From the NCBI GenBank assembly GCA_034429015.1, contig DAOUHA010000012.1:70615-134614 (forward strand): a stretch of 64,000 nt of DNA. Direction: 5' to 3'. The notes below the pieces were generated by a model. It was not told the origin of the DNA. It did no database searches and saw only the letters and a program-made list of their open reading frames with translations. Shown piece after piece: positions 3,101-37,200 of this stretch (the first letter of the stretch is position 1; each line of letters begins with the position of its first letter). The stretch comes from Longilinea sp. GTDB lineage: Bacteria > Chloroflexota > Anaerolineae > Anaerolineales > Anaerolineaceae. The position numbers and the translations under genes were made by a program.

Positions 3101-3690
3101 TAAAACCCCGGGGGGTGTATGGTTATTTTCCAGCCCAGGCAAATGGTGATGATGTTGTCATTTATGACCCTGTCTCCCTGGACTCTTCACCAATTGAACT
3201 CACCCGCTTCCATTTCCCACGCCAGTCAGACGGTGAATACCTGTGCCTGGCGGATTACTTTACATCTGTTGAATCCGGAATCATGGATGTGGTCGCCTTA
3301 CAAGTGGTGACGGTAGGCAAGGAAGCCACGGATCAGGTCGACCGGCTGCAGGCAACCGGGGATTATTCCGCGGCTTACTTCCTCCATGGGCTGGCTGTTC
3401 AGACTGCGGAAGCTGCAGCGGAATATCTTCACCAGCACATTCGCAGGGAACTGGGATTGGCGTCCGATCAGGGAAAAAGATATTCCTGGGGCTACCCTCC
3501 TCTGCCAAATTTAAACGATCATGCCAGAGTGTTCAGGCTTCTACCGGTTGAACGCGAGCTGGGCATGAGCCTGACATCAGCTTTCCAGCTTGTTCCCGAA
3601 CAATCCACGGCTGCGCTGATTGTGCATCATCCCCAGGCAAAGTATTTCAATATCGGTGATAACCGGATTGACCAATTGCTTGAGAAGTAA
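181..3690 (+). CDS. metH: Cobalamin-dependent methionine synthase
   Basis: 1169 aa. Hcy-binding domain (FDGAMGT, GGCCGTTP zinc site), pterin-binding domain, B12-binding DxHxxG motif (DVHDIG) with SALL and GGA motifs, and a C-terminal AdoMet-activation domain (RYSWGYP). Confidence 0.97.
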   Translation: MNRTHTNRRYLDALQDHVMIFDGAMGTSLQSQNLTAEHFGGERTMGCNDYLVITHPQAVETVHRSFLDVGVDVIETCTFRSNRLTLGEYGLGEQVMEINRVAAQLARKLADEYSRSTGHPRFVAGSIGPTGKLPSMNDSELSNITFDELADIFREQSVGLIEGGVDLLIIETSQDILEVKAAIDGVQRAFLEMGQYLPIQAQVTLDTAGRMLLGTDIHAVMAILEPLPVDVIGINCSTGPEHMREPIRILGETSNLPVSCIPNAGLPINVDGQAVYPLQPEPFADALLEFVEKNNISVVGGCCGTTPAHLEKVVEKLHNHPNPRRPRLEIPRLASAIQAVDMQQEPAPFLIGERLNTAGSAKFKQLVLADDFDGSLSIARQQVNNGAHGLDLCVALTERPDEAALMTRLIKTLASTVRIPFVIDSTEPDVMEAALKTAPGRCLLNSTHLEGGRDRADRVFGLAKRYSAAVICLTIDEQGMARIADRKLTVANRLYEIATREYGLRPCDLVFDGLTFTLATGDPDFANSAVETLDAIPRIKAELPGVLTSLGISNVSFGLQPEARAVINSVFLFHAVQAGLDMAIVNPAHITPYAEIPEEERELAEDLIFNRRENSLSHLLQYFHTIKHPTGSAETTKSALQSLPPEERLHRFILQRQKEGVAEAIDEIINQVPAEVRNQAAVNILNSVLLPAMKEVGDKFGTGELILPFVLQSAEVMKKAVAHLEKYLERKEGISKGRVVLATVHGDVHDIGKNLVKTILINNGYTVFDLGKQVPVETIITKAVENNADAIGLSALLVNTSRQMPLIVNELHRRGLQIPVLIGGAAINRRFGHRILLTDNNEWYPTGVFYCKDAFEGLSTMDALTSPDHTVLLERIRQEAALELGRNTHPFLGETQQHSGTPPAASIPRVPGWGVRIVQEMPLESVFNYLSINELYRLSWGAKNIQGEAWEKIKAEFDSRLNEMQQEAVSTGWLKPRGVYGYFPAQANGDDVVIYDPVSLDSSPIELTRFHFPRQSDGEYLCLADYFTSVESGIMDVVALQVVTVGKEATDQVDRLQATGDYSAAYFLHGLAVQTAEAAAEYLHQHIRRELGLASDQGKRYSWGYPPLPNLNDHARVFRLLPVERELGMSLTSAFQLVPEQSTAALIVHHPQAKYFNIGDNRIDQLLEK

Positions 3691-3714
3691 CTTTCCCAAT
3701 AAAAGGATTTCTCC

Positions 3715-5586
3715 ATGAATGAACCACAACGATTTCAGGAAATTATCCAACACGGTGGACCACCGTTGATTTCCGACGGAGCCATGGGGACATTATTGAA
3801 TGCACGTGGAATTAGTTTTGAACAATCCTTCGACTCGTTGAATTTGATCAACCCCGCGCTGGTGGCTCAAATCCATCGTGAATATATTGACGCCGGTTCC
3901 ACCATGATCCAGACCAATACATTCAGCGCGAACCGCTTCAAACTGGCACTGCATGGTCAGGAACACCTGTTGAGGGAAATCAATAAAGCCGGAGTTGAAC
4001 TTGCCCGCCGGGTGGTGTTGGCATCTTTCAAGGATGTCCTGATTGCCGGGGACATTGGTCCACTGGGAGTGCGGCTGGCACCGTTTGGACGGGTTCAGCC
4101 GGAACAGGCTTACCAGGTGTTTTCCGAGCAAATCAGCTCCCTGGCTGAAGCAGGCGTGGATTTATTAATCATCGAAACCATGACCGATTTATTTGAACTT
4201 GACGAAGCAATCCGGGCAGCCCGCGAGGCGGCATCCGGTCTGGGGATCATCGCTTCGATGACCTTCACCCGGGATAACCGTACCCTTTTGGGTGACAGCC
4301 CCGCCAAGGTTGCCCGCCACCTGGTGGAATCAGGCGTCGAGGTGATCGGAGTCAACTGTTCGGGAGGTCCCAGCCAGATCTTGCATATCCTGCGGGAGAT
4401 GCACCAGGCGGTGCCGGAAGCCAGGCTGTCCGCCATGCCGAATGCTGGCTGGCCGCAGCAGGTGGGCGGGCGGATCATGTATCCAGCCGGGGCAAGTTAC
4501 TTCAGCGAATATGCCCTGGCGTTCTGGCAATATGGCGCGGTGGTAATTGGCGGCTGCTGCGGAACAACCCCCCAGCATATTGCTGCCATGCGCAAGTCAA
4601 TTGATTCCACTCCGGAACGCCCCACCAATGGACAGGATGCCCTGGCTGTTTTGGAGCTTGATGACCAGGCGGCTGAAATCCATCAACCCACCCAGTTTGC
4701 CCAGAAACTTGCCGACGGGCAGTTTGTATTTGCTGTGGAAATGGACCCGCCGCGCGGTCTCAGCACCCACAAATTACTGGCGGGAGCCAGCCTTCTCTCC
4801 GAGGCGGGTGCCGATGTCATTGACGTTGCAGACAGCCCGATGGCACGCATGCGGATGAGTCCCTGGGCAGTCTGCAGCCTGATCCAACGCAAGGTGGGTA
4901 TTGAAACCACGCTTCATTTTCCGACCCGGGGTCGCAACCTGCTGCGTGTTCAGGGAGACTTGCTGGCTGCCCATGCACTGGGAGTGCACAACGTTTTTGT
5001 TGTCATGGGAGACCCCACAGCCATCGGCGATTATCCGGATGCGATGGACAATTATGACCTGGTTCCCTCGGGCTTGATCAAACTCATCAAACAGGGGTTC
5101 AATGTTGGTCTGGATCATGCCGGTACCGACATCGGTCAGCCAACATCGTTTTTTGTCGGTTGTGCACTTAACCTTCATCCGGAAAACCTGCAGAATGAAA
5201 TCAGAATCCTTAAAAGGAAAATCCAATCGGGCGCGGATTTTATCCTGACCCAGCCCACATACAACCCAAAATCAGCCCTGGAAAACTTGAGAATCATCCG
5301 GGATTCCCTGGAGGGTTTGGAAATCCCCATCCTGGCGGGCATCCTGCCACTGGCATCCACCCGGCATGCTCAATATTTATATCATGAAGTACCAGGAATC
5401 CTCATCCCGGAGATGATACTCCAGCAAATGAATTCCACAGCCGATAACGGCGGGCAACTGGGAATGAAAATTGCGATAGAATTAATCAGTGAATTACGCC
5501 CTGCCATCCAGGGTGTGTACCTAATGCCGGCATTCAGCCGGTATGATATTGCTGCTGAGATCATTGAAACCATCAAAGCAGAATAA
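3715..5586 (+). CDS. Bifunctional homocysteine S-methyltransferase / 5,10-methylenetetrahydrofolate reductase (YitJ-like)
   Basis: 623 aa. The N-terminal half has SDGAMGT and GGCCGTTPQH (Hcy S-methyltransferase). The C-terminal half is MetF/MTHFR-like (FAVEMDPPRG, TIM-barrel pattern). Confidence 0.88.
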   Translation: MNEPQRFQEIIQHGGPPLISDGAMGTLLNARGISFEQSFDSLNLINPALVAQIHREYIDAGSTMIQTNTFSANRFKLALHGQEHLLREINKAGVELARRVVLASFKDVLIAGDIGPLGVRLAPFGRVQPEQAYQVFSEQISSLAEAGVDLLIIETMTDLFELDEAIRAAREAASGLGIIASMTFTRDNRTLLGDSPAKVARHLVESGVEVIGVNCSGGPSQILHILREMHQAVPEARLSAMPNAGWPQQVGGRIMYPAGASYFSEYALAFWQYGAVVIGGCCGTTPQHIAAMRKSIDSTPERPTNGQDALAVLELDDQAAEIHQPTQFAQKLADGQFVFAVEMDPPRGLSTHKLLAGASLLSEAGADVIDVADSPMARMRMSPWAVCSLIQRKVGIETTLHFPTRGRNLLRVQGDLLAAHALGVHNVFVVMGDPTAIGDYPDAMDNYDLVPSGLIKLIKQGFNVGLDHAGTDIGQPTSFFVGCALNLHPENLQNEIRILKRKIQSGADFILTQPTYNPKSALENLRIIRDSLEGLEIPILAGILPLASTRHAQYLYHEVPGILIPEMILQQMNSTADNGGQLGMKIAIELISELRPAIQGVYLMPAFSRYDIAAEIIETIKAE

Positions 5587-12382: not shown

Positions 12383-12880
12383 TCAAGCTGGAAAGATGAA
12401 ATCTGCCGGGAAAGACTTAATTTCCCAGTTCAACAATTTCCCCGCATGGTAAACAAAATGGTAAATCCGGGGTGGCACCCCTTTAAGTAGATAAGGCAAA
12501 ACCACGTGGAGGTTATCAACCACTTCCGGAGCTGAACAAGCCCAATCCTGATTCAGCCATGCCAGCCTGCCTTCATTGTTTGATTTCGGTTCACCCTCTG
12601 GGGCATTTGTGCTGAACAGGTACAATCCACCGGATGGGATTTCAAATCCCTCCCAGGTTAGCAAGCCATCAAATCGGACACCGGGAAGGACAAAACCTGT
12701 TTCCTCCTCAACCTCCCGCAGACAGGCAGCCAGGGGTGCCTCACCGGCTTCTATATGTCCTCCAACCCCATTCCATTTCCCCTGGTTGGGTGGATGGTTG
12801 CGATGCAACATTAAGATCAAGTCATCCCGTCGTAAAAAACAAAGTGTGAACCGAATTTCAGGTGGTTGAATTCCGGTCAT
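12383..12880 (-). CDS. NUDIX hydrolase
   Basis: Nudix box GGHIEAGEAPLAACLREVEEETG. Its ATG overlaps the hycI stop codon (ATGA). Confidence 0.85.
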   Translation of the reverse strand: MTGIQPPEIRFTLCFLRRDDLILMLHRNHPPNQGKWNGVGGHIEAGEAPLAACLREVEEETGFVLPGVRFDGLLTWEGFEIPSGGLYLFSTNAPEGEPKSNNEGRLAWLNQDWACSAPEVVDNLHVVLPYLLKGVPPRIYHFVYHAGKLLNWEIKSFPADFIFPA

Positions 12881-13380
12881 GGTCCCACCAGAGTCTCCCC
12901 CAGTAAATCAACTGCGGATTCCACTCCCTGGATGACTGGATGAGACATGGGAGTATCAAAATCAACCGCCAGAGGTTGAATTCCAATCAAGGCGACCCGG
13001 CAGCCCAGTTCGTTGATGAGATATTTGGACAGAATGGTCGGAGGAAGTATGTGTGTGGATGCGCTCATCCCATCCGCTGCAGTCCAATCCAGCCACATCA
13101 CGGTACCCGGTTCCGCGTCGAAGGATGCCGCATCCACCAGAATCACCCAATCGGGATCAAACCGCCTTAACGGTCCGGTAAAAGCTTCCGGCGCCGCCCC
13201 CCCTTCCAGGAGCAATAATTCCAACCTGCCATCCCGCAAGATGTACGGTTCCCGCGCCAATTTATCCGGTGTAAACGCGCACCGCCGGTCCAGGTACTGG
13301 TGCAAACTGCGCACCACCTGGACCCCGGCGGCGTCATCTCCATTTAGTTCGTTCCCGATCCCCAGGAACGCCAGACGCAA
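12877..13380 (-). CDS. hycI: Hydrogenase maturation endopeptidase (HycI-type)
   Basis: LGIGNELNGDDAAG motif typical of hydrogenase-3-type proteases. The track ORF runs to 13494 and overlaps the upstream ferredoxin gene by 107 nt. TTG at 13380, 8 nt after that gene's stop, gives a typical M-RLAFLGIGNE N-terminus. Confidence 0.8.
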   Translation of the reverse strand: MRLAFLGIGNELNGDDAAGVQVVRSLHQYLDRRCAFTPDKLAREPYILRDGRLELLLLEGGAAPEAFTGPLRRFDPDWVILVDAASFDAEPGTVMWLDWTAADGMSASTHILPPTILSKYLINELGCRVALIGIQPLAVDFDTPMSHPVIQGVESAVDLLGETLVGP

Positions 13381-13387
13381 AGACTGA

Positions 13388-13831
13388 TTAAGCCGATGCG
13401 GAAGGCTGGCAGGGATCAGCGGATTCAGGATTTTCCTGAGCGGCTTGATCCAACAGGAATTGGACATCTTCGTCCCGACCGTAATAAACCTCAAATGGTT
13501 TGCGGCTCAACGCGGCCAGCTCGTATTCCTCATTGGACATACTCAAGCATTCAAACCGGCAGTTTTCCACACACTGGGAACAATAAGTGCAGCGGTCTGC
13601 ATTGAAGCGCATGACAAAACGTTTGTTTGCCCGATCCAAAACGATCAACTCGATGGCTTTTGCCGGGCAATCCTTGACGCACAACATGCACCCAGAACAC
13701 TTCTCAGGATCGTAATGCAGTTTCCCGCGCAATCGTTCCGGAGCGGGCTTGCGAACATACGGATAACGTTCGGTGATTGGTTTTTTAACCAAGGACCGGA
13801 GGATATCACCTATCATTGCACCGATGGTCAT
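13388..13831 (-). CDS. 2x[4Fe-4S] ferredoxin subunit (NuoI / HycF-like)
   Basis: Two cluster motifs: CSGCMLCVKDCP and CTYCSQCVENC. Confidence 0.85.
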   Translation of the reverse strand: MTIGAMIGDILRSLVKKPITERYPYVRKPAPERLRGKLHYDPEKCSGCMLCVKDCPAKAIELIVLDRANKRFVMRFNADRCTYCSQCVENCRFECLSMSNEEYELAALSRKPFEVYYGRDEDVQFLLDQAAQENPESADPCQPSASA

Positions 13832-13834
13832 TTT

Positions 13835-14782
13835 TTAACTCCCAAACAATAGCGGATTCAGGTAGCGCCCCACCACAATGGCAAGCAGTTGGAGAAGAGC
13901 CAGCAGTGCGCCAGCCCGCCACCAAATTCCCACCGTCTGATCAATTCTCAACCGGGCAAAGAGGGATTGCAGACCAGCCGTCACCAACAGGAGGATGCCG
14001 ACTTTCCAAAGGAAATCCACCGGGTTGACGATGCCACCCATGTAAAAAGCTGCAATCAATGTCAATCCGATGACCAGTTCCACATCCTTGCCAATTCTGA
14101 AGATTGCCAATCCCCGTCCGGAATATTCGGTAAGGGCACCGGCGACAATTTCCGTTTCAGCTTCAGGTGCATCGAAGGGCGGTAACTCCAGTTTGCCCAT
14201 TAAACCCACCATCGCCACCAGGAAGCCAATCGGCTGGCTGAGAATGAACCACAGGTTCGCATCTGCAAAAGCATTGATCTCGGAGATGTTCCAGGTGGCG
14301 GCAACGATAGCCGGACCCAGCAAGGCGAGCAGGAAGGGGGCTTCGTATGAGAATAATTGGGTCAGGGTACGGGTCGCACCAACCAGTGAGAAACGGTTGG
14401 CTGTATTGGCGCCTGCCAGCCCCAGGCAGAGTGTCATGACACTGAGCAGGTACAGGGTAACGATCAGGTCACCAGCGAAGGAATGGGCAGGGCTGAAGCC
14501 AAACAAAGGCACGTACAATGCTGCTGTCAGCGCGGAAGCCAGGGCGATGACCGGCAGGACAATAAAGAGACCCTTTTGAACGCCATCCGGGACAATTTCT
14601 TCCTTCGCAAGCAGTTTGACGATATCTGCCAGCGGCTGGAACCAGCGTGGACCGATTCTGTTCTGATATTGAGCCACCAGTTTTCGATCCGCCCACTCAA
14701 AGAACAACCCGAATGCCAGCAGGAACAATCCGCCGGGAAATACAAGTAGTGCTATCAGGGGAGGGAGCGTTATATTGTTCAT
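13835..14782 (-). CDS. Membrane subunit, NuoH / HycD-like
   Basis: 315-aa polytopic protein. N-terminal EWADRKLVAQYQNRIGP matches the NuoH/HycD signature. Confidence 0.85.
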   Translation of the reverse strand: MNNITLPPLIALLVFPGGLFLLAFGLFFEWADRKLVAQYQNRIGPRWFQPLADIVKLLAKEEIVPDGVQKGLFIVLPVIALASALTAALYVPLFGFSPAHSFAGDLIVTLYLLSVMTLCLGLAGANTANRFSLVGATRTLTQLFSYEAPFLLALLGPAIVAATWNISEINAFADANLWFILSQPIGFLVAMVGLMGKLELPPFDAPEAETEIVAGALTEYSGRGLAIFRIGKDVELVIGLTLIAAFYMGGIVNPVDFLWKVGILLLVTAGLQSLFARLRIDQTVGIWWRAGALLALLQLLAIVVGRYLNPLLFGS

Positions 14783-15966
14783 TTATAGTATTCCACTCCA
14801 TACTGCCGTAAATCTTCCCAGGTCCAATCCTGGGTTGTGCTGCCATTCCGCCGGATTGAGATCAGGCGGTCATTGCAGGAAAAACAGGGATCTATGCCAG
14901 CCAGGATCATGGGCATATCTGCAAGCTTGTGTCCAGGCACAAAGTTTATGATGGAAGCCCAGTTGCTGAGGGTTGGAGTGCGCACCTTCACCCGTTCAGG
15001 CTGTTCGGTTCCATTGGATTTAATGAAGTAGAACAGTTCTCCGCGGGGTGCCTCAACCCGGCTGATGGTTTCACCAGCGGGAATGCGGCGGGGCATGCGC
15101 GTGGTAAGTTCCGTCTCGGGCAAATTATCGAGAATCTGGCGAATGACCCGGAAACATTCCTGTGTTTCCCGAATTCTGACAATAAAGCGCGCCAGCAAGT
15201 CGCCTGCTGTTTCCAGAACTATATTAATCGGGAATTGCGGATACCCGGCATACGGAGCATGGACGCGAATATCGATATCCACATTGGAAGCCCGGGCAAC
15301 CGGTCCCACACAGCCCATTGCGATGGCTTCCTCCTTGGTCATGGTACCCACACCCTGGGTCCGTGCCAGGAAGGTTTCATCGGTGGTGACAACCTTCAAG
15401 TAATGGTTGTTGCGTTCCTCCAGGAAATCCAGTCCTTTGCGTATCTGATCCGCCATATCCGGAGTGACATCAATCTTGACGCCGCCCAGCACGTTGACGG
15501 AGTAGTTCACGCGATTACCAGTCAGAGCTTCCAGCAGATCCATTACAGTTTCACGGTCGCGCCAGGAGTACATGAAAAGTGTATCGAAACCACCTTCATG
15601 CGCTGCCACACCCAGCCAAAGCATGTGGCTGTGAATGCGCTCCAGCTCTGCTACCAAAGTCCGGATTGCCTGGGCGCGCGCCGGAGCTGTCACACCTGCC
15701 AGTTTTTCAGCGCCGAGCGCAAATGCCGTGGCGTGGATGTGCGAACAAATGCCGCAAATGCGTTCCATCAGGTACATTCCCTGGGTATAGTTCCTGCCCT
15801 CGGCGCCTTTTTCAATTCCACGATGGACATATCCCAACCGGACGCTGGCGCTGGTGACAATTTCACCATCCACATCAAATTCAAAGTGACCCGGTTCTTT
15901 TAACGCGGGGTGTTGTGGACCAATGGGAACGATAAATTTTTGCGGAGTTAGAGGTAAATTTTCCAT
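14779..15966 (-). CDS. Group 4 [NiFe]-hydrogenase large (catalytic) subunit, NuoD-like
   Basis: N-terminal RICGICSHIH (C71, C74) and C-terminal DPCFSCNDR (14866-14892) give all four Ni-Fe cysteine ligands. A 28-aa tail follows the Arg. Confidence 0.92.
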   Translation of the reverse strand: MENLPLTPQKFIVPIGPQHPALKEPGHFEFDVDGEIVTSASVRLGYVHRGIEKGAEGRNYTQGMYLMERICGICSHIHATAFALGAEKLAGVTAPARAQAIRTLVAELERIHSHMLWLGVAAHEGGFDTLFMYSWRDRETVMDLLEALTGNRVNYSVNVLGGVKIDVTPDMADQIRKGLDFLEERNNHYLKVVTTDETFLARTQGVGTMTKEEAIAMGCVGPVARASNVDIDIRVHAPYAGYPQFPINIVLETAGDLLARFIVRIRETQECFRVIRQILDNLPETELTTRMPRRIPAGETISRVEAPRGELFYFIKSNGTEQPERVKVRTPTLSNWASIINFVPGHKLADMPMILAGIDPCFSCNDRLISIRRNGSTTQDWTWEDLRQYGVEYYK

Positions 15967-15981
15967 TACAAAATCTCCTTC

Positions 15982-16458
15982 CTAGCTCTGATTCATACCG
16001 GTAAAGGATTTCCGTAGAGGATAAACCTCATCCGGCCAGTTTTCCGGCAGGATTAAATGATCGGTTGTGGGGGTACCCTCACAGGTAATTCCGAATAGTT
16101 CCATCAATTCACGTTCAAACAGTGTTGCCACCGGGATGATTTCACAGATGGTGGGAATGACCGGGTTCGCATACGGCACACTCACCCGCAAGGTGGTCAC
16201 AGCAGAGCCATTGCAGAAATGATAGAGAGCTTCCAGGATGCCATCCGGTTCCGCTCCTTCTGCGGCTGCAACGGGATGATCCAGCCCGGTTATCGCAGTC
16301 AAGTATCCCCATTGATTATCGATAATTAATTTGACTGCTTCCGGCAGCCGGTTCGGGGAAAGTTTCACATCCAGGCGGTTGGGCTCCGGGTGTTCCATAG
16401 ACTCCGCCAGGGGCTGCAGCAGGTTTTCACACATTTGCAAAGCAGTATCCAGGTCCAT
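15982..16458 (-). CDS. NuoC (30 kDa)-like hydrogenase subunit
   Basis: 158 aa. The size, position between the NuoB-like and NuoD-like genes, and the ERELMELFGI motif are typical of NuoC / the HycE N-terminal domain. Confidence 0.8.
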   Translation of the reverse strand: MDLDTALQMCENLLQPLAESMEHPEPNRLDVKLSPNRLPEAVKLIIDNQWGYLTAITGLDHPVAAAEGAEPDGILEALYHFCNGSAVTTLRVSVPYANPVIPTICEIIPVATLFERELMELFGITCEGTPTTDHLILPENWPDEVYPLRKSFTGMNQS

Positions 16459-16467
16459 TATATCCTC

Positions 16468-16962
16468 CTACTCTTCCGCCACAGGTTTGGGAGCCGGGGC
16501 TGGTTTAGCCTGAAGGCTCTGCAGCAGGGCAACCACGCCATGGATAATTGCCTCCGGACGCGGCGGGCACCCGGGAATATAAGCTGCCACCGGGATGACC
16601 TCACCAATGGAGCCGACGATGTTGTAGCAGCCCTGGAATGCCCCGCCAGATATACCGCATGAACCAACCGCAACCACGAACTTGGGTTCCGGCATTTGTT
16701 CATAAATGCGGATCAGCCGATCTCTTGATTGAAGAGTGACCGGTCCGGTGCAAAGTAATACATCTGCATGTCGCGGTGAACCCTGCAGCTTGATGCCGAA
16801 GCGTTCCAGGTCGTACCGCGGGGTCAGAGTTGCCAAAATTTCAATATCACAGCCGTTGCAGGAGCCGCTGTTATAGTGAATCACCCAGGGTGAGTTGACT
16901 CTTGCCCAGGTTTTGATTTGATTCAGCGCCCGCTGCCATGGATTATCCAGTTTCAATTCCAT
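16468..16962 (-). CDS. [NiFe]-hydrogenase small subunit, NuoB / HycG-like
   Basis: Four cysteines for one proximal [4Fe-4S] cluster: GSCNGCDIE, GSCGISGG and GCPPRPE. Confidence 0.9.
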   Translation of the reverse strand: MELKLDNPWQRALNQIKTWARVNSPWVIHYNSGSCNGCDIEILATLTPRYDLERFGIKLQGSPRHADVLLCTGPVTLQSRDRLIRIYEQMPEPKFVVAVGSCGISGGAFQGCYNIVGSIGEVIPVAAYIPGCPPRPEAIIHGVVALLQSLQAKPAPAPKPVAEE

Positions 16963-17002
16963 TCGATCCTCTTTTCCAGTACCTGATAAATCCTTTCACA
17001 CC

Positions 17003-17314
17003 TCATCCCAACAACAGGGCGACCAATGCCAGCCCAATACCGAACAGATATGGAAGCATCAGCTTGTCCACGGGACCGGTCGCCAGCACCAGCACACCCA
17101 AGTGCAGGACCGCAAAGAAAAAGGCGATCAAGAAGAACGGGCGGTATCCGGGTGCTGCCATCGAGGTTGGAGCTTCCTCTCCGCTGCCATAGATGGTGCT
17201 TTTTAGAGGAGTTTCCTTGGTCTTTCCAGCCAGACCTCTGCCAATGAAGAAGATGATCAGCACCAGCGGAATATAAATAAGAAATGCAACAGGGGGTGTA
17301 AGCAAAATTTCCAT
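17003..17314 (-). CDS. Small three-TM membrane subunit, NuoA-like
   Basis: 103 aa. TM1, then a loop with YGSGEE (compare YECG in NuoA), then FFLIAFFFAVLHLG (compare FYLVAMFFVIFDVE). Assignment is from remembered NuoA sequences only. Confidence 0.5.
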   Translation of the reverse strand: MEILLTPPVAFLIYIPLVLIIFFIGRGLAGKTKETPLKSTIYGSGEEAPTSMAAPGYRPFFLIAFFFAVLHLGVLVLATGPVDKLMLPYLFGIGLALVALLLG

Positions 17315-17325
17315 CTGATGCTCCT

Positions 17326-18837
17326 TTATCTGCCAAAGGTCTGGAACAACGCCAGAGCCGCCGGGTGAGTAAGCCAGTTAAGCAGGGAAGGATAGAAACC
17401 CAGCACAACCGTTCCTGCTGCCAGCAGAATGAGCGGAAGTGTCATCAACCAGCTGACTGGTTTTCCTTCCAGAACAATATCGGAAGGTTTCGTCCGGTAC
17501 ATGCGGTTGACCAGGGGGGCATAGTAGCCGAGGGAGAGAACGCTGTTCAATCCCATGAAGCCAACCAGGACGATTATCCACACGTTTTGAGTCTGGGCGC
17601 CTGCCACAAGAATCTGCCACTTGGACATGAAGCCTGCCAGGGGTGGCAGCCCTCCCAAGCCCAACAGACCAATGCTCAGGGTCAGTACAACCCAGGGATA
17701 CTTTTTCGCAGCTCCGTTGAGATCATCCACCATCAATGGCGAGTGATCACCCCGGGCAATATACAGGGCATAGAGCAGGGCGCCAACTCCAAGGAAGGCG
17801 AGTCCCTTCATCATCGCATGGTTGAACAGATGGAAGAAACCGCCTGCCGCACCATTTGCGGCACCAAAACTGAGCGCAATTCCAATGCCAAAGAGGATGT
17901 AGCCCATGTGGGCGACCGAGGAGTACGCCAGCAGACGTTTCACCTGCTTCTGCCGCAGTGCCATCAGGTTGCCGATCAGCATATTGACTGCCGCAAACAC
18001 GATAATAATGATGCCCCAATCCCTCACTGCGGTGAGCGCACCGAGTGCCCGCAGCATCGCCACCATGCCGGTTTCGATGACCACGCCTGAAAGCATGGCA
18101 CTGATTCCACTGGGTGCCTGCGAGTGAGCATCCGGCAGCCAGGTATGCAGGGGAACCAGAGCTGTCTTGACACCAAAACCAATCAGGAAAAAAGCTCCTG
18201 CAGCCATTAAACCTGGCCAGGGCATGAGATACAGGCGGAAGGTCTCCGGATTCAATGTACCGGTGTACATGAATACAACGGCAATGCCCAAAAGGACAAA
18301 CACCGAACCCACCGCACTTTGAACCAGGTACTTGACCCCCGCCTCCAGTGAGGCTGGTTGTTCCCGGTAGAAGGCAACCAGCATATAGGATGCGATTGCC
18401 ATTGCCTCAAACCAGACCCACAGGTTGAAGAGATCGACTGCGGTGCCCAGACCAATCATTGAGCCGATCATCGTCAGCAGAAGGGCATAAAATTTTTCCT
18501 CACCGACTTCTGATTGCATATACTGACCGGAGAATAAAATGACAAGCGTGCCCAGCATCCAGACCGAAACAGCCAGCACCAGGCTGATTCCGTCAAATTG
18601 GAGGGGGACGGTTTCCACCATCATTCCTACAGAATTGCCAGTGGTGACCACCTGCCTGCCCGCAATAAACAACGGGATGCCGGTCAACAACATGGCTGCC
18701 AGTGCCACCCAGCGAGCTGGATTTACTGTACTGGAGTCACCTGCCTTGCGTGCCACCAGCCTGCCAGCCAGGTATGTCACCGGGGCAGCCAGCAGCGGAA
18801 TTGCAATAACGAAAATCACTGCATACATCGGGTCCAT
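17326..18837 (-). CDS. Antiporter-like membrane subunit (NuoM/NuoN/MrpD family)
   Basis: 503-aa polytopic protein with the WLPDAHSQAPSGISAMLSG motif typical of the proton-antiporter M family. Confidence 0.85.
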   Translation of the reverse strand: MDPMYAVIFVIAIPLLAAPVTYLAGRLVARKAGDSSTVNPARWVALAAMLLTGIPLFIAGRQVVTTGNSVGMMVETVPLQFDGISLVLAVSVWMLGTLVILFSGQYMQSEVGEEKFYALLLTMIGSMIGLGTAVDLFNLWVWFEAMAIASYMLVAFYREQPASLEAGVKYLVQSAVGSVFVLLGIAVVFMYTGTLNPETFRLYLMPWPGLMAAGAFFLIGFGVKTALVPLHTWLPDAHSQAPSGISAMLSGVVIETGMVAMLRALGALTAVRDWGIIIIVFAAVNMLIGNLMALRQKQVKRLLAYSSVAHMGYILFGIGIALSFGAANGAAGGFFHLFNHAMMKGLAFLGVGALLYALYIARGDHSPLMVDDLNGAAKKYPWVVLTLSIGLLGLGGLPPLAGFMSKWQILVAGAQTQNVWIIVLVGFMGLNSVLSLGYYAPLVNRMYRTKPSDIVLEGKPVSWLMTLPLILLAAGTVVLGFYPSLLNWLTHPAALALFQTFGR

Positions 18838-18839
18838 GG

Positions 18840-20588
18840 TTACACTCCCAGCGCCATAACAGCGAATAGAATGACCAGGGCAGCAATGATGCCCAGCACA
18901 TTCCAGTTCAACAGTCCGGTCTGGGTCACACTGATGCCATCAGATGCACCGAATGTTCCTTTGACCACACCGTTATTAATTATTTCAAAGCCAAAACTTT
19001 CCTCGGCTGCCTTGCCCAACCAACCCAGTGCCTTGCCCACAATCCTGAGTTTATCTCTCATGCACCACGCCAGCAAGCCAATGACCACCACAATCAAGGC
19101 GATGAGGGTGGGCAGGGATATCACCTCACCCAGGATCGCCCAGGTGGATTCGGCTTCAATGCCATGGAAGGGCAGTGTCCTGGCACTTAATAAATCCTTG
19201 AAAGGTCCAGCCAGCAGCCAGGTGGTCAATGCGCCAAACGCCAGGGGAGCCAGCGCAACCTTCATGGCAGTACCGGCATCATGGACATGCTCCCCGCCAT
19301 GAGCCTCACCAAAGAACACCATCCAGACCATGCGGAAGGTATAGAAGGCGGTGATGCCCGCTACCAGCAGCATGATGATATACATCCAGATTGGGCTGTG
19401 CGCCAGACCAGCTTCGAGGATCATTTCCTTGGACCAGAAACCGTTCAGGATGGGTAAACCCGCCAGGGCGAGTGAGCCGATGATGAAGACAATTTTTGTA
19501 AAGGGCATCGTCTTCCCCAGACCGCCCATCTCCCGCATATCACGGGTTCCGGAGCTGTGAATCACGGCTCCGGCTCCCAGGAAGAGCAGAGCCTTGAACA
19601 CGCTATGGCTCATCAAATGGAACTGGCTGGCGAATACCGCCCCCGTGCCGACAGCATAGACCATGTAACCCAGCTGGCTGACTGTGGAATACGCCAATAC
19701 CCGCTTGAGGTCATTGGAAACCACACCCATGATCGCCGCCATCAAGGCAGTCACCAGACCAACCAGCATGACAGCCATTGTCCAGCCGGGCACATCCTTG
19801 AATGCCGGGAAGAAACGAGCCAGCAGGTAAACACCGGCGTTCACCATGGTGGCGGCATGAATGAGTGCGCTGATCGGAGTGGGGGCTTCCATCGCATCCG
19901 GGAGCCATGTCTGAAAGGGGAATTGGGCTGATTTTGCAGCTGCTGCCACCAGAAAGCCAAATGCCAGAACCGCCAGGAAGCCTGCGGGAACAATGGATGG
20001 ATTGGCAAGGAAGGCATTGATATCCACGCTGCCGGTGAAGGAGTAAAGCAATACCGCACCCAGCAGCAAACCAACACCACCCAACTGGGTAATGATTAAC
20101 GCTTTAATGCCGCCGCGAACCGCCTTGGGATCATCGTTATGAAAGGCGATCAAGGCATAGGAACATAGGGCGGTAATTTCCCAGAAGACGAACATCAACA
20201 ACAGGTTGCTGGTCAGAACCAGACCCACCATGGCGCCGATGAAGAATAGCATGAAGGAATAGTACCTGCCCAACTGCTGCTCGCCATGCATGTAATCCAC
20301 GGAGAAGATGACCGCCAGGCTGCCCACGACGGCGGCAATCACTGCCAGGAAAATTCCCAGCCCATCGGCTACAAAGTTGAAATCACCAAACACTCCGCCC
20401 ACCGGCAAACTGAGGGCTATCTCCTTGCCGCTGAAGCCCAACAGTGCAATTGAAGCAATTCCAGCGACTACTGAGAAAATGACTGCCAGAGTGTGTTGGA
20501 GTTTTTCATACCTGTCACCCACCAGCCAGACAATCAAAGCGCCCAGCCAGGGTAAACCAATCGAAAGAAGAATCAATGTGGGTGCCAT
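18840..20588 (-). CDS. Antiporter-like membrane subunit (NuoL/MrpA family)
   Basis: 582 aa with WLPDAMEAPTPISALIHAATMV, plus a C-terminal extension of about 100 aa beyond the antiporter core that ends in a TM helix. Confidence 0.85.
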   Translation of the reverse strand: MAPTLILLSIGLPWLGALIVWLVGDRYEKLQHTLAVIFSVVAGIASIALLGFSGKEIALSLPVGGVFGDFNFVADGLGIFLAVIAAVVGSLAVIFSVDYMHGEQQLGRYYSFMLFFIGAMVGLVLTSNLLLMFVFWEITALCSYALIAFHNDDPKAVRGGIKALIITQLGGVGLLLGAVLLYSFTGSVDINAFLANPSIVPAGFLAVLAFGFLVAAAAKSAQFPFQTWLPDAMEAPTPISALIHAATMVNAGVYLLARFFPAFKDVPGWTMAVMLVGLVTALMAAIMGVVSNDLKRVLAYSTVSQLGYMVYAVGTGAVFASQFHLMSHSVFKALLFLGAGAVIHSSGTRDMREMGGLGKTMPFTKIVFIIGSLALAGLPILNGFWSKEMILEAGLAHSPIWMYIIMLLVAGITAFYTFRMVWMVFFGEAHGGEHVHDAGTAMKVALAPLAFGALTTWLLAGPFKDLLSARTLPFHGIEAESTWAILGEVISLPTLIALIVVVIGLLAWCMRDKLRIVGKALGWLGKAAEESFGFEIINNGVVKGTFGASDGISVTQTGLLNWNVLGIIAALVILFAVMALGV

Positions 20589-20591
20589 GGC

Positions 20592-20903
20592 TTACCTCTT
20601 GAGTGTCGTAAGATCTTTAAGATCGAGGTTGCCAAACTTGCGGCGTACCTGGACTGCCAGGGTCAATCCCACCACAGCGACGATGGTATCCGCCACGATG
20701 GCAGTTAACGCCAGGCTCTGCCCCAGGTTGACCTGACCGGTGAGACGCCCCACCAGAACAAGCGCCAATGCCGCACCTTTAACCAGGATTTGCAGGGCAA
20801 CCACGACTTTGATTAAATTTCGGATGGTCAAAAGGGCATACAATCCAATGCCAATGAGTCCGATGATGATAATCAGGAATATGGAAGGAATATTCAGGCT
20901 CAT
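20592..20903 (-). CDS. NuoK / MnhC / HyfE-like small membrane subunit
   Basis: 103 aa, three TM helices. Size, position and pattern fit the NuoK family. Confidence 0.7.
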   Translation of the reverse strand: MSLNIPSIFLIIIIGLIGIGLYALLTIRNLIKVVVALQILVKGAALALVLVGRLTGQVNLGQSLALTAIVADTIVAVVGLTLAVQVRRKFGNLDLKDLTTLKR

Positions 20904-21418
20904 ATGGGTTTCTCCTCTTCCTGCCCATGTGCAGCATCCTTCTTTTGCGCTTCAGCCAGCATACCCATCATCCCCAGGACGCCAGTGAAAATGATCACGA
21001 CCTGCAAAATGACATCCAGGTTGCGTTCCTGCCAAAGCACGGTTTTAAATGCTGAATCCATGGAAGTGGGCAATCCAATTCCTCCCAAAAACAGAAGGGG
21101 ATAAACAATGTAATAGCCCATCAGAACAACGGAAATCAGGATTAAGATGCCACCAAGCCACCAGGGTATGATGGATCGGAGCTTGATGGGCTCGTCACCG
21201 GCGATGTTGATTGCAAAAACAAACAGCACCGTAACCAGCCCTGCCCCAACACTCAGTTCAATGACAGCAACTTCAGGCGCGCCCAGCATATAAATCAACA
21301 GGGCAACCAAAGCGCTCGTGCCAGCCAGCCAGATGGCTGAAGACAAAAGCTTTTTTACGATGATTGCCATGATGGCGCATCCCAAAGCTCCCGCCCCTAT
21401 CAAAATATATAAATACAT
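20900..21418 (-). CDS. NuoJ-like membrane subunit
   Basis: 172 aa. LGAPEVAVIELSVGAGLVTVLFVFAI resembles the conserved NuoJ TM2-TM3 region. It is the first gene of the operon and has a GGAGG RBS. Confidence 0.55.
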   Translation of the reverse strand: MYLYILIGAGALGCAIMAIIVKKLLSSAIWLAGTSALVALLIYMLGAPEVAVIELSVGAGLVTVLFVFAINIAGDEPIKLRSIIPWWLGGILILISVVLMGYYIVYPLLFLGGIGLPTSMDSAFKTVLWQERNLDVILQVVIIFTGVLGMMGMLAEAQKKDAAHGQEEEKPI

Positions 21419-21488: not shown

Positions 21489-21687
21489 GTGTTAGGTATC
21501 ATATAAATTAGGGTGAAAGTGTCCATAATATCATCCACTTTTCTCCACATCTGTCGATTGTACCTGAAATCTCTTGGATTTTAAATTTTTATTGCATCCA
21601 AATGGAATGACAACCCCGGCAAGGGGCTTTACCAGGCAGGCTATAATATTGTACAATCAACATGCGAATCATGTGGAGCAAATCCAT

Positions 21688-23019
21688 ATGCCTTTTAATT
21701 TCAATGGTATTCAATTCATCATCGGCGTTATTCTGGCTGTGGTTGTGGCAATGGCTGCCCACCGGATGCATGCCCTTAGTCGCAGCGGAATGGTTGCTGC
21801 CGCCCTGTTGGGAATCATCTTTATGGGTTTGGGCGGATGGCAGCCATCAATATTATTGCTGACCTTTTTTTTATCATCCAGCCTGTTGTCGCGCTTGTTT
21901 CGGGGGAGGAAATTGCTGCTGGACGAAAAATTCAGCAAGGGCAGTGAACGGGATGCATGGCAGGTTTTGGCAAACGGTGGTATCGCCGGGGGCTTTGTTC
22001 TATTGGGATTGTTTCTTCCTGATGCCGCCTGGACATGGGCGGGCTGCGCAGCTGCATTGGCAGCTGCCAACGCCGATACCTGGGGAACCGAGCTGGGGGT
22101 GCTGAGCCCCCGGCAGCCACGTCTGATTACAAACTTTAAACCAGTAAGTCCTGGTACATCCGGCGGGATCAGCCTGACAGGAATTGTTGCCGGGTTGTTG
22201 GGAGCCAGCCTGGTTGCCCTGCCGGGGGCTTTGTTCTGGCAGCCTGCCATTTCTCTTTCATTCACTTCACGCTTCGGATTACTGGCATTGGCTGGTCTGA
22301 TTGGCAGCCTGATTGATTCAATATTGGGTGCAACCATTCAAGCCATCTACACCTGCCCCGCATGCCGGAAGGAAACTGAACGCCATCCCCTGCACATCTG
22401 CGGAGAAAAAACCATTCGGAAGCGCGGTATTCCCTGGTTAAACAATGACTGGGTGAATACTGCCTGTACATTCAGCGGGGCGTTGATTGCGGTCGTCATA
22501 TTTAGTCTATTCCCGACGTCCATGACACAACCTATTGTATTAACAGGTGTCCCCATGAACAAATTGTCATTTTCATCTCCAGCTTTTAAAAACACAGCTC
22601 AAATTCCAGCCAAATATACCTGCGATGGGGAAAATCTCTCCCCGGAACTCATCTGGAGTGATCTGCCTGATGGAACACGCAGCCTGGCTCTAATCGTTGA
22701 CGATCCGGATTCATATCCACCCGGGTTTACCCACTGGGTGATCTATAACCTCCCCTCCACTTTGTTTGGATTACCGGAAGGCATGGAACAGGCATCCCGG
22801 GTCAGGGGGTTTGGCAGCCAGGGCAGAAACGATTTCGGAAACCATGGATATGATGGTCCCTGCCCGCCGGGAGGGAAAATCCATCATTATTATTTCACCC
22901 TGCACGCCCTGGATCTGGAATCCAACCTGCCTGACGGTTTATCCAAACAGAAATTACTAAAGCTTATCCAGGGGCACATTCTTGGTCAGGTGGAATGGAT
23001 GGGCACATACCGCCGCTAG
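21688..23019 (+). CDS. Fusion protein: DUF92/TMEM19-like integral membrane domain + PEBP (YbhB/YbcL) domain
   Basis: The N-terminal ~290 aa are polytopic, with GGISLTG and SLIDSILGATIQ motifs that I associate with DUF92. The C-terminal ~155 aa align from their own Met (MNKLSF..., ATG 22555) with YbhB-type PEBP (DDPD, HWV.YNLP, GYDGPCPP, HHYYFTLHALD). Start set at ATG 21688 after GGAG. Confidence 0.7.
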   Translation: MPFNFNGIQFIIGVILAVVVAMAAHRMHALSRSGMVAAALLGIIFMGLGGWQPSILLLTFFLSSSLLSRLFRGRKLLLDEKFSKGSERDAWQVLANGGIAGGFVLLGLFLPDAAWTWAGCAAALAAANADTWGTELGVLSPRQPRLITNFKPVSPGTSGGISLTGIVAGLLGASLVALPGALFWQPAISLSFTSRFGLLALAGLIGSLIDSILGATIQAIYTCPACRKETERHPLHICGEKTIRKRGIPWLNNDWVNTACTFSGALIAVVIFSLFPTSMTQPIVLTGVPMNKLSFSSPAFKNTAQIPAKYTCDGENLSPELIWSDLPDGTRSLALIVDDPDSYPPGFTHWVIYNLPSTLFGLPEGMEQASRVRGFGSQGRNDFGNHGYDGPCPPGGKIHHYYFTLHALDLESNLPDGLSKQKLLKLIQGHILGQVEWMGTYRR

Positions 23020-36293: not shown

Positions 36294-36309
36294 ATGAGGG
36301 ATGAGGGTG

Positions 36310-37200
36310 TTACTGGGTGTCCTGGCGCCGGTTCTCGGCTGCCAGTTCGGTGATTTCACGAATATCCGCAAAATACTGAGTGGAGGGAGTCACAACTCCG
36401 ACAGCCAGGGTCATCAATGGCACCTGATGGCTGGTACCGTCCTTTCCAGGCGCCATAATGAAGCCCTGCTGGCGGTCAGTAAACGAATAATGCGATAGAA
36501 TTTCCTCGCCGAACCGTTCCTTCAGACGTTTTCGGATGGGTTGGGCATGATCACTGGTTGTGATCAAAATAAAATTATCCCCGCCGGCATGACCGATGAA
36601 GTCATTCACCGTCCCAAGTTCATCCGCCACCTCCCCCAACAGCATTGCGGAATAACGCAGGCAATCGTTGGCGGCTATGAAACCATAAACATCCTTGAAG
36701 GCGTCAAAATGGTTGATGCGGATGTCCATGAACGCCCATCCCTCCTGGCGGATCATTCGCCGCAACTGATCTTCGATCATCCGCCCGGCAGGCAGACCCG
36801 ATTGGGGATCAGTGAGGCTTTCACGCTGGGCACGGCTGATGGCATTCTGCACGCGCAGCTTTAATTCTTCAATGTCAAACGGCTTGGTGATGTAATCATC
36901 AGCGCCCAGTTCCAATCCCTGCAGACGGTCGCTTCGTTCATCTTTTTGGGTCAGGAAAATCACCGGGATGTGGCTGGTACGGGTGTTCATGCGCAGGGTG
37001 CGGCATACCCCATAGCCATCAATATCCGGCAGCATGATATCCAGAATGATCAGATGGGGCATCACATGCCGGGTTTTCTCCAGCGCATCCGCCCCCCTCC
37101 CGGCGACATCCACATCATAACCCTGGCTGGAGAAGTAAATGCGCAGCATGGTCGAAATATCAACGTCATCTTCCACAATTAATAATCGTGCCTTACCCAT
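36310..37200 (-). CDS. Response regulator with a degenerate GGDEF-like output domain
   Basis: N-terminal receiver (LIVEDD, ILDIMLPD, ITKPF). The C-terminal domain has GGDEF-fold spacing, but the signature reads GGDNF and the upstream DxxFKxxNDxxGH region is altered (HFDAFKDVYGF). Confidence 0.75.
   Translation of the reverse strand: MGKARLLIVEDDVDISTMLRIYFSSQGYDVDVAGRGADALEKTRHVMPHLIILDIMLPDIDGYGVCRTLRMNTRTSHIPVIFLTQKDERSDRLQGLELGADDYITKPFDIEELKLRVQNAISRAQRESLTDPQSGLPAGRMIEDQLRRMIRQEGWAFMDIRINHFDAFKDVYGFIAANDCLRYSAMLLGEVADELGTVNDFIGHAGGDNFILITTSDHAQPIRKRLKERFGEEILSHYSFTDRQQGFIMAPGKDGTSHQVPLMTLAVGVVTPSTQYFADIREITELAAENRRQDTQ

Follow-up and report, generated by a model that had tools for sequence, protein, structure and literature searches.

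A conserved ten-subunit operon of Longilinea sp. and other Anaerolineae, probably encoding a complex-I-like group 4 [NiFe] hydrogenase

A 64-kb stretch of DNA from Longilinea sp. (referred to here as the window) carries on its minus strand, at 12877-21418, a locus that probably encodes a ten-subunit, membrane-bound, energy-converting group 4 [NiFe] hydrogenase together with a HycI-type protease; the enzyme would couple ferredoxin-driven H2 evolution to ion translocation. From 21418 down to 12877, eleven open reading frames (ORFs) follow one another with gaps of no more than 40 nt or overlaps of a few bases. By homology, ten of them encode counterparts of ten of the eleven core subunits of complex I and the last encodes the protease. 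A preliminary description of this DNA had listed ten tightly packed minus-strand genes, all of which are present, and behind them a HycI-type endopeptidase, for which the Pfam HycI domain was recovered. Pfam matches were judged by the curated cut-offs in a scan of 49 large ORFs of the window. None of the 49 encodes NuoEFG, formate dehydrogenase (FDH), carbon monoxide dehydrogenase (CODH) or Hyp proteins, as the preliminary description had stated, nor does any encode pyruvate:ferredoxin oxidoreductase (PFOR). In the direction of transcription, the genes are as follows.

20900-21418, minus strand: 172-aa five-helix NuoJ-like subunit (Pfam MbhD, PF13244, 42 bits; Oxidored_q3, NuoJ, PF00499, 38 bits)
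20592-20903, minus strand: 103-aa NuoK/MbhG/MrpC-like subunit (Pfam Oxidored_q2, 1.7e-16)
18840-20588, minus strand: 582-aa NuoL/NdhF/MrpA-type antiporter-like subunit (Pfam Proton_antipo_M)
17326-18837, minus strand: 503-aa MbhH-type (MrpD/NuoN-like) antiporter-like subunit (Pfam Proton_antipo_M)
17003-17314, minus strand: 103-aa NuoA/ND3-like three-helix subunit (Pfam PF00507, E=0.01, below cut-off)
16468-16962, minus strand: 164-aa small subunit, NuoB/MbhJ-like, one [4Fe-4S] cluster (Pfam Oxidored_q6, 2.5e-32)
15982-16458, minus strand: 158-aa NuoC/MbhK-like subunit, unfused to the large subunit (Pfam Complex1_30kDa, 1.5e-22)
14779-15966, minus strand: 395-aa [NiFe] large subunit, NuoD/MbhL-like (Pfam Complex1_49kDa and N-terminal NiFeSe_Hases)
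13835-14782, minus strand: 315-aa NuoH/MbhM-like membrane anchor (Pfam NADHdh, 8.7e-70)
13388-13831, minus strand: 147-aa NuoI/MbhN-like subunit, 2x[4Fe-4S] ferredoxin-type (Pfam Fer4 families; NCBIfam NuoI-type)
12877-13380, minus strand: HycI-type maturation endopeptidase, about 167 aa (Pfam HycI, 3.2e-11; ORF open to 13494)

Subunits, metal sites and maturation

Subunit identities, metal ligands, conserved channel residues and the structure and conservation of the operon were observed directly. The large subunit contains the L1 motif RICGICSH and the L2 motif DPCFSCNDR, the latter followed by a C-terminal extension of 28 aa (368-395). Across 26 Anaerolineae sequences and three outgroups (n=29), the four Ni-Fe cysteines (C71, C74, C361 and C364) and R367 are invariant, and the C-terminal extension is largely invariant or nearly so. 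E. coli NuoCD has EGVD at the positions of the four cysteines. The ligands of the single cluster of the small subunit (C35, C38, C102 and C132) are likewise invariant across the family. The preliminary description had read both the four cysteines and the single cluster from this locus, along with separate genes for the NuoC- and NuoD-like subunits (158 and 395 aa) and no partner module, and these readings stand. Compared with structures in the PDB, the large subunit matches HycE (7.6e-77) and MbhL (3.3e-76) in what is effectively a tie. The translation of the 147-aa subunit has two CxxCxxCxxxC motifs, and by analogy with related enzymes this subunit is presumed to be the electron entry point.

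Judged by these features, the enzyme is assigned to the group 4 [NiFe] hydrogenases and not to the quinone reductases, as the preliminary description had argued. The Ni-Fe ligand motifs, the single-cluster small subunit and the NuoC-, NuoH- and NuoI-like subunits are all present. Of the maturation apparatus usual for group 4 (a cleavable extension, a specific endopeptidase and HypA-F), the window supplies the extension at 368-395 and the HycI gene, both conserved, and no hyp genes. A complex I-like reductase of quinone or some other acceptor, devoid of hydrogenase activity in the manner of Ehr, Mbx/MBS or the 11-subunit Nuo, could be suggested by annotation, in that the best NCBIfam models for most subunits are Nuo models and public pipelines name NuoD, NuoL and NuoA. 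Such an activity is nonetheless hardly conceivable, since the four Ni-Fe cysteines, which the Ehr, Nuo and MBS homologues lack, are invariant and since a cleavable C-terminal extension is conserved together with a dedicated HycI protease.

With 13494 as its start, the protease ORF would share about 100 nt with the nuoI-like gene. A TTG codon at 13380 lies 7 nt past the nuoI-like stop, directly ahead of the LGIGNxLxGDD motif, and gives a 167-aa protein; the orthologues have 160-170 aa. The start is most likely TTG 13380, not 13494. In the public gene calls for two contigs with the identical operon (L090, 12132-12500; L091, 10449-10817), the nuoI-like gene is omitted and the HycI ORF is begun at an upstream ATG (196 aa), where it overlaps the nuoI-like gene.

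Among the membrane subunits, the family profile of the 172-aa protein matches MbsD (3e-11) and MbhD (4e-11) across the N-terminal three transmembrane helices (TM) and E. coli NuoJ (5e-5) over residues 9-143. In Methanoregula, the counterparts of its two halves are encoded by individual genes (87 aa for the N-terminal and 80 aa for the C-terminal part). The protein is thus MbhD and MbhE in one chain, i.e., the NuoJ arrangement; its Glu54 (TM3) is invariant. The NuoK-like 103-aa subunit is about equally close to NuoK (profile match in the PDB, 1.3e-12) and MbhG (2.5e-11). It has Gln38 aligned with the essential Glu36 of E. coli NuoK, and Lys32 and Lys42 are invariant in the same helix.

The two antiporter-like subunits are of different types. 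In the PDB, the 582-aa subunit scores 298 bits with NdhF, 271 with Nqo12 and 248 with MrpA, and only 184 with MbhH. Its family profile aligns to Nqo12 (6-561) and MrpA (64-586) through TM15 into the region of the lateral helix (HL). An AF2 model (pLDDT 81) places TM15 at 492-509, helices at 511-553 and TM16 at 560-581, and the top 50 Foldseek matches of this model are all NuoL/ND5/NdhF/MrpA chains. The subunit is therefore predicted to carry a C-terminal HL between TM15 and TM16. All NuoL channel residues are kept (E137, K219, H324, H328, K332, K387 and E388). The 503-aa subunit matches P. furiosus MbhH over its full length (220 bits), followed by MbsH (167 bits) and the rest (at most 134 bits), which identifies it as the MbhH orthologue; its E144, K224 and K406 align with the channel residues of NuoM/N in TM5, TM7 and TM12.

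The identity of the NuoA-like 103-aa protein is less evident. Its family profile is matched in the PDB by ND3, NuoA or NdhC in 15 of 17 cases, over the full length but weakly (best E=0.0035), and MbhI (6cfw chain I) is not matched. The AF2 model (pLDDT 76) has helices at 7-29, 57-79 and 84-102, that is, TM1, a long conserved loop and TM2-TM3, with no lateral helix. Because Foldseek returned zero PDB matches for this model, the NuoA assignment is drawn from the weak profile matches and the topology. Relatives are named NuoA in the COG-based annotation of JGI, and homologues occupy the same position in a Methanoregula locus and in the cluster L087 (hhalign 97%). The loop YGSGE...PGYRPFF is invariant, as is His71 at the site of the acidic FDxE of ND3/NuoA; His is also found here in the Methanoregula and L087 homologues. 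The preliminary description had proposed NuoA and NuoJ homologues instead of members of Mbh-specific families. The 172-aa protein matches both Mbh and Nuo families, and the 103-aa protein at 17003-17314 matches only NuoA, and weakly. The Pfam models proposed for the membrane subunits scored above the cut-off for NuoJ, NuoK and Proton_antipo_M, with PF00507 (NuoA) the one below it. The 315-aa membrane anchor keeps the acidic side chains found in the TM5-6 loop of NuoH (D204, E207, E209, E211 and E219).

Conservation, gene order and relatives

The large subunit has thousands of close relatives which, wherever they are named, belong to Anaerolineae/Chloroflexota, and an identical protein was found on anaerobic-digester contigs. 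In a collection of species-representative genomes, 496 stretches encode a relative of the large subunit. The best 80 loci were examined, of which 60 contain the whole region. The order J-K-L-M-A-B-C-D-H-I-protease was found in 60/60 complete loci, each ending with the HycI gene, and the shorter contigs hold fragments consistent with it. The 80 loci include those of the cultured type species Anaerolinea thermophila, Longilinea arvoryzae, Leptolinea tardivitalis and Bellilinea caldifistulae. The operon is thus widespread across fermenting Anaerolineae, not rare. Its flanks vary between genera, for instance between A. thermophila and L. arvoryzae, and no partner or hyp gene conserved beside the operon was found in the flanks compared. 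A connector subunit of the HycB/HyfA or CooF type is absent from the operon in all 60 complete loci.

A paralogous second cluster was seen in a Pelolinea-type Anaerolineae lineage (L096, 615-4270), with the order 114 aa, B, C, D (360 aa), H, I. Its large subunit terminates with the DPCxxCxDR motif and there is no protease gene behind the cluster; the contig, which breaks off on the upstream side, leaves the antiporter genes out of view.

The preliminary description had taken the gene order for a rotated nuoABCDHIJKLMN operon. The comparison instead points to the mbh operon of P. furiosus, whose order is mbhD/E-G-H-I-J-K-L-M-N. J-K-L-M-A-B-C-D-H-I is colinear with mbhD to mbhN, and the 503-aa gene, the MbhH orthologue, stands at the mbhH position. 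Compared with the mbh operon, the Anaerolineae operon is without the MrpEFG-like mbhA-C and without mbhF, a NuoL-type gene separates the G-like from the H-like gene, and the NuoA-like protein occupies the mbhI position.

Outside Anaerolineae, an exhaustive search of 50%-identity representatives of the large subunit found about 90 clusters that outscore P. furiosus MbhL and E. coli HycE (about 260 bits). Two of the nearest neighbours in this set (L088, 10001-11350, 55% identical; L089, 9564-11176, 48% identical) are orphan NuoC/NuoD-like genes that have GC-- and FCYF in place of the four Ni-Fe cysteines, with no other complex subunit nearby. As orphan cysteine-less genes, they were dropped as a guide to the architecture.

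The closest clusters that are complete come from Methanoregula, from the lineage of L087 and from Bathyarchaeota. The same order is present in a Methanoregula sp. cluster (L083/L084), which reads J, K, antiporter, antiporter, A-like (109 aa), B, C, D, H, I, HycI and bears the KO annotation 'membrane-bound hydrogenase subunit alpha'. The large subunits of Methanoregula and Anaerolineae are 50.5% identical and the NuoH proteins 45.5%, and the A-like proteins are homologous (hhalign 97%). The J protein of Methanoregula is split into two genes (87 and 80 aa), as in Mbh, and its first antiporter gene joins two antiporter-like domains in a 1094-aa product, only 31% identical to the 582-aa subunit. 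In L083 (1-2301 and 3776-7060), a second set of B, C, D (359 aa) and ferredoxin genes lies directly upstream of the syntenic cluster with its 1094-aa antiporter fusion. In the cluster L087, whose large subunit is 52% identical, hypA/B/F precede genes in the order antiporter-antiporter-J-K-A-B-C-D-H-I-HycI. A Bathyarchaeota cluster (L085) shows 47% identity to the window in the large subunit and 66% in the small one; it has the order A-B-CD-H-I-J-K-L-M-N, a true nuo order, followed by an FrhB-like gene. Its NuoA is not detectably closer to the Anaerolineae NuoA-like protein than ordinary NuoA is.

In a neighbor-joining tree of 130 large-subunit representatives, which is star-like and weak and carries no support values, the Anaerolineae clade falls among Methanoregula, Bathyarchaeota (Hfo-like) and Desulfaltia sequences, outside the clades of HycE/HyfG and of P. 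furiosus MbhL. The 582-aa subunit is 39.6% identical to E. coli NuoL and 36% to HyfD. Because this subunit is closer to NuoL (39.6%) than to the Methanoregula antiporter (31%), whereas the hydrogenase module is closest to archaeal clusters, the sequences suggest a mosaic history with an L subunit nearest to bacterial NuoL and a hydrogenase module nearest to archaeal clusters.

Several features surround the operon. The J-like gene is the first gene of the operon, and upstream of it lies a divergent gene (21574-23019) that encodes a DUF92 integral membrane domain fused to a phosphatidylethanolamine-binding protein (PEBP) domain. Between the two, one weak promoter match was noted:

21498-21525, minus strand: sigma-70-like promoter match TGGACA-16-TATGAT (10/12 matches), about 80 nt upstream of the first gene; weak

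In the promoter and terminator scan, match counts barely exceed those in shuffled sequences, which makes the match a weak hint at most. Elsewhere in the window, 181-5586 encodes a cobalamin-dependent methionine synthase (1169 aa) and then a 623-aa protein in which a homocysteine S-methyltransferase domain is fused to methylenetetrahydrofolate reductase (MTHFR). The gene at 30402-36371 encodes a sensor histidine kinase of 1989 aa that contains seven or more GAF domains as well as a PAS domain, and it is followed by a response-regulator/GGDEF gene at 36310-37200. A bacterial alpha-2-macroglobulin gene (1984 aa, 54134-60088) lies 33 kb from the hydrogenase operon; in Longilinea arvoryzae (L095, 1-4263), an alpha-2-macroglobulin-type gene lies directly upstream of the operon.

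Comparison with known complexes

The membrane-bound hydrogenase (MBH) of P. furiosus (PDB 6CFW; HydDB 4d) has MbhD-, MbhG-, MbhH- and MbhJ-N-like subunits in common with the Anaerolineae enzyme. Like MBH, the operon is without a dedicated electron-input module, with ferredoxin as the presumed donor. MbhD and MbhE are separate in MBH and joined in one 172-aa chain in Anaerolineae, and the Anaerolineae lateral helix is borne by an extra NuoL/MrpA-type subunit. The lateral helix belongs to MbhI in MBH, to MbsH' in MBS and to Nqo12 in complex I (PMC8165549), and its predicted place on an L-type subunit in Anaerolineae is that of complex I and Mrp. The protein at the I position is NuoA-like and has no detectable similarity to MbhI. 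In addition, MbhL is only 40% identical to the Anaerolineae large subunit, which differs further from MBH in its C-terminal extension and the accompanying HycI gene. The Mrp-type Na+ module (MbhA, B and C, i.e., MrpE, F and G, plus MbhF) was found neither among the operon genes nor among the called genes of three related contigs (L090, L094 and L095). Membership in canonical Mbh (group 4d) was rejected because the Mrp Na+ module and MbhI are absent, though the MbhH/D/G-like subunits and the order match.

The preliminary description had considered the architecture, with its separate NuoA and NuoJ, to be without precedent among group 4 enzymes. This does not hold, since two complex-I-like hydrogenases have been published and Methanoregula has the same gene order. 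The first is Hfo, an Fpo-like 11-subunit [NiFe] hydrogenase of Bathyarchaeia that was placed in HydDB subgroup 4g, a subgroup stressed as heterogeneous (Loh et al., 2021; PMC7886697). Hfo is complex-I-shaped as well, with NuoA, J, K, H, B, C, D and I and antiporter-like subunits, the Ni-Fe motifs and no input module (PMC7886697). It differs in its eleven subunits, which follow the fpo/nuo order (A B C D H I J K L M N) and include three antiporter-like ones, and C and D are fused in L085. The Anaerolineae enzyme, in contrast, has ten subunits in Mbh order, two antiporter-like subunits and a bacterial host, and membership in Hfo was rejected for the number of subunits and their different order.

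The second is the complex I-like group 4 [NiFe] hydrogenase of Asgard archaea (Freyarchaeia/Atabeyarchaeia), which has an L-like subunit with helix HL and more than one antiporter-like subunit and has been argued to conserve energy like complex I (Valentin-Alvarado et al., 2024; PMC11291895). The Asgard clusters contain up to eight Nuo-like genes and are syntenic with Hdr, a group 3 hydrogenase and ATP synthase; the likeness to them is drawn from the published description only (PMC11291895). The Methanoregula cluster has its order in common with Anaerolineae and differs by its split J, its 1094-aa double antiporter and its archaeal host. Mbh-like operons had been noted in Methanomicrobiales before (Anderson et al., 2009; PMC2686161).

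E. coli Hyc/Hyf (4a) and Nuo have the NuoB/C/D/H/I-like core and antiporter-like subunits in common with the Anaerolineae enzyme, and Hyc also has the HycI protease and the C-terminal extension of the large subunit. Identity of the large subunit is 36% to HycE, 35% to HyfG and 29% to NuoCD. Hyc and Hyf differ by the C-D fusion, by HycB/HyfA and by the coupling to FdhF. These comparisons bear on whether the locus could encode a complex of the formate hydrogenlyase type, or a CO-linked one, with its FDH or CODH partner encoded elsewhere in the genome. The partner genes could sit outside the window, and HycE, tied with MbhL, is the best PDB match of the large subunit. However, no HycB/HyfA- or CooF-type connector occurs in any of the 60 loci, NuoC and NuoD are unfused, unlike in HycE/HyfG, and the large subunit falls outside the HycE/HyfG clade of the tree at an identity of only 35-36%, which together render this kind of complex very improbable. 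Membership in the formate hydrogenlyases (4a) was rejected on the separate C and D, the lack of a connector in the operon and the lack of FDH in the operon or window.

Ech (4e) has six subunits, of which one (EchA) is antiporter-like; membership was rejected because the Anaerolineae enzyme has ten subunits, two of them antiporter-like, and J, K and A in addition. In complex I, the Ni-Fe cysteines are lost, and three antiporter-like subunits and usually NuoEFG are present. Of the complex I set of NuoA, H, J and K and three antiporter-like subunits with HL on NuoL, the Anaerolineae operon encodes A, H, J, K and a predicted HL-bearing L, with only two antiporter-like subunits in all, the second of MbhH type. 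As the four cysteines are kept and the gene order is not nuoA-N in 60/60 loci, membership in complex I or the 11-subunit Nuo was rejected.

In HydDB, 4d is defined as Mrp-linked and 4g as loosely clustered, uncharacterised and putatively ferredoxin-coupled (PMC5037454), and 4g has been described as loosely clustered and polyphyletic (PMC7886697, PMC5037454, PMC11291895). Our guess is that the Anaerolineae enzyme may belong to 4g; the HydDB supplement has no Anaerolineae entries. The operon itself has surfaced in the literature at most in passing. A NiFe hydrogenase cluster (COG3260-3262) common to Anaerolineae bins and UNI-1 was given as the basis of fermentative H2 production (Xia et al., 2016; PMC4877987). 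This cluster is probably the present operon, since COG3260-3262 correspond to its B, D and C subunits. In the Anaerolineae genome papers examined, the hydrogenase is undiscussed or given one line, and no subunit-by-subunit dissection of the operon was found in the literature, which is not proof that none exists. Rather than forming a new class, the operon is a bacterial variant of the complex-I-like group 4 hydrogenases that occurs across the lineage and is uncharacterised. The most fitting description is that of an Mbh-type operon in reduced form, with a NuoL-type and a NuoA-type subunit.

Proposed function and significance

In the mechanism that we propose, reduced ferredoxin from fermentation would be oxidized at the NuoI/MbhN-like subunit, whose two [4Fe-4S] clusters would take up the electrons. 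The NuoB-like small subunit, with its one cluster, would relay them to the Ni-Fe site of the 395-aa subunit, where protons would be reduced to H2. The free energy would drive the translocation of ions, most likely H+. The coupling path would run from the NuoH-like anchor, the NuoA-like loop and the NuoJ/NuoK-like pair to the two antiporter-like subunits, one of MbhH type and one of NuoL/MrpA type with a lateral helix. During maturation, the protease would cut off the 28-residue extension behind DPCFSCNDR once Ni-Fe has been inserted, with R367 as the expected last residue before the cut.

In this scheme, what donates the electrons, which way the reaction runs, which ion is moved and how the subunits are arranged along the membrane arm are all inferences. 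Ferredoxin is proposed as donor because an input module never accompanies the operon and because the NuoI/MbhN-like subunit would be an exposed entry point as in MBH. Similarly, the lack of a partner module in the window and the differing flanks suggest a freely diffusing donor, as for P. furiosus MBH and Ech (HydDB definitions, PMC5037454). H2 evolution is favored as the main direction because the hosts are H2-releasing fermenters; cultured Anaerolineaceae produce H2 from fermentation (PMC5481317). Ion pumping is supported by the NuoL and NuoM/N channel residues retained in both antiporter-like subunits and by the retained acidic loop of NuoH. H+ is favored over Na+ as the coupling ion because the Mrp Na+ module (MrpEFG/MbhABC-like) is missing.

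Several points weigh against this proposal. The preliminary description had considered that the ten-gene order might be routine in an already characterised subtype; it is routine in one lineage (60/60 loci), but the members of this Anaerolineae lineage are biochemically uncharacterised. Ferredoxin, PFOR and hyp genes were not found in the window, for which reason donor and maturation are only inferred. Gln replaces Glu36 of NuoK, and an invariant His replaces the acidic FDxE of NuoA. With these replacements (Gln38 and His71), coupling through the small subunits may differ from that in complex I.

Related enzymes are also reversible (Ech), and for Hfo, the closest published archaeal analogue, the H2-uptake direction has been proposed (PMC7886697). 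The same enzyme could accordingly run mainly in reverse, oxidizing H2 and using the membrane potential to reduce ferredoxin, as has been proposed for methanogen Ech and Bathyarchaeia Hfo. Group 4e enzymes are physiologically reversible (PMC5037454), and Hfo, the cluster type with a 47%-identical large subunit, was proposed to reduce ferredoxin with H2 (PMC7886697). We regard this direction as unlikely for Anaerolineae, given that the cultured Anaerolineaceae are H2-releasing fermenters (PMC5481317), that the window holds no CO2-fixation genes, MetH and the fused MTHFR there being biosynthetic, and that no uptake-linked partner is conserved beside the operon. With no partner genes conserved beside the operon, ferredoxin-driven H2 evolution coupled to ion translocation is the most likely function.

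For the membrane arm, a complex I topology can be put forward tentatively, and we consider it somewhat doubtful: NuoH, NuoA/J/K, an MrpD-type pump and an HL-clamped NuoL-type pump would follow one another, and not the inverted topology of Mbh/MBS/Mrp.

In anaerobic digesters, in sediments and in the subsurface, Anaerolineae rank with the most abundant fermenters. The operon is probably their main route to dispose of ferredoxin electrons as H2 with some of the energy conserved, and it therefore bears on their syntrophy with methanogens. It adds a bacterial member, present in organisms in pure culture, to the small set of archaeal complex-I-shaped hydrogenases (Hfo, Asgard). Its make-up is hybrid: the gene order is that of Mbh, the loop subunit is of NuoA type and the lateral helix of NuoL type. 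A structure would reveal the topology of the membrane arm. If the complex I topology were true, this bacterial enzyme from cultivable hosts would amount to an H2-producing 'complex I minus one pump', and no other living model would stand closer to the transition from hydrogenase to complex I; its mosaic make-up would also fit assembly by module exchange. The value of the operon lies in its being widespread, ecologically important and present in cultured strains.

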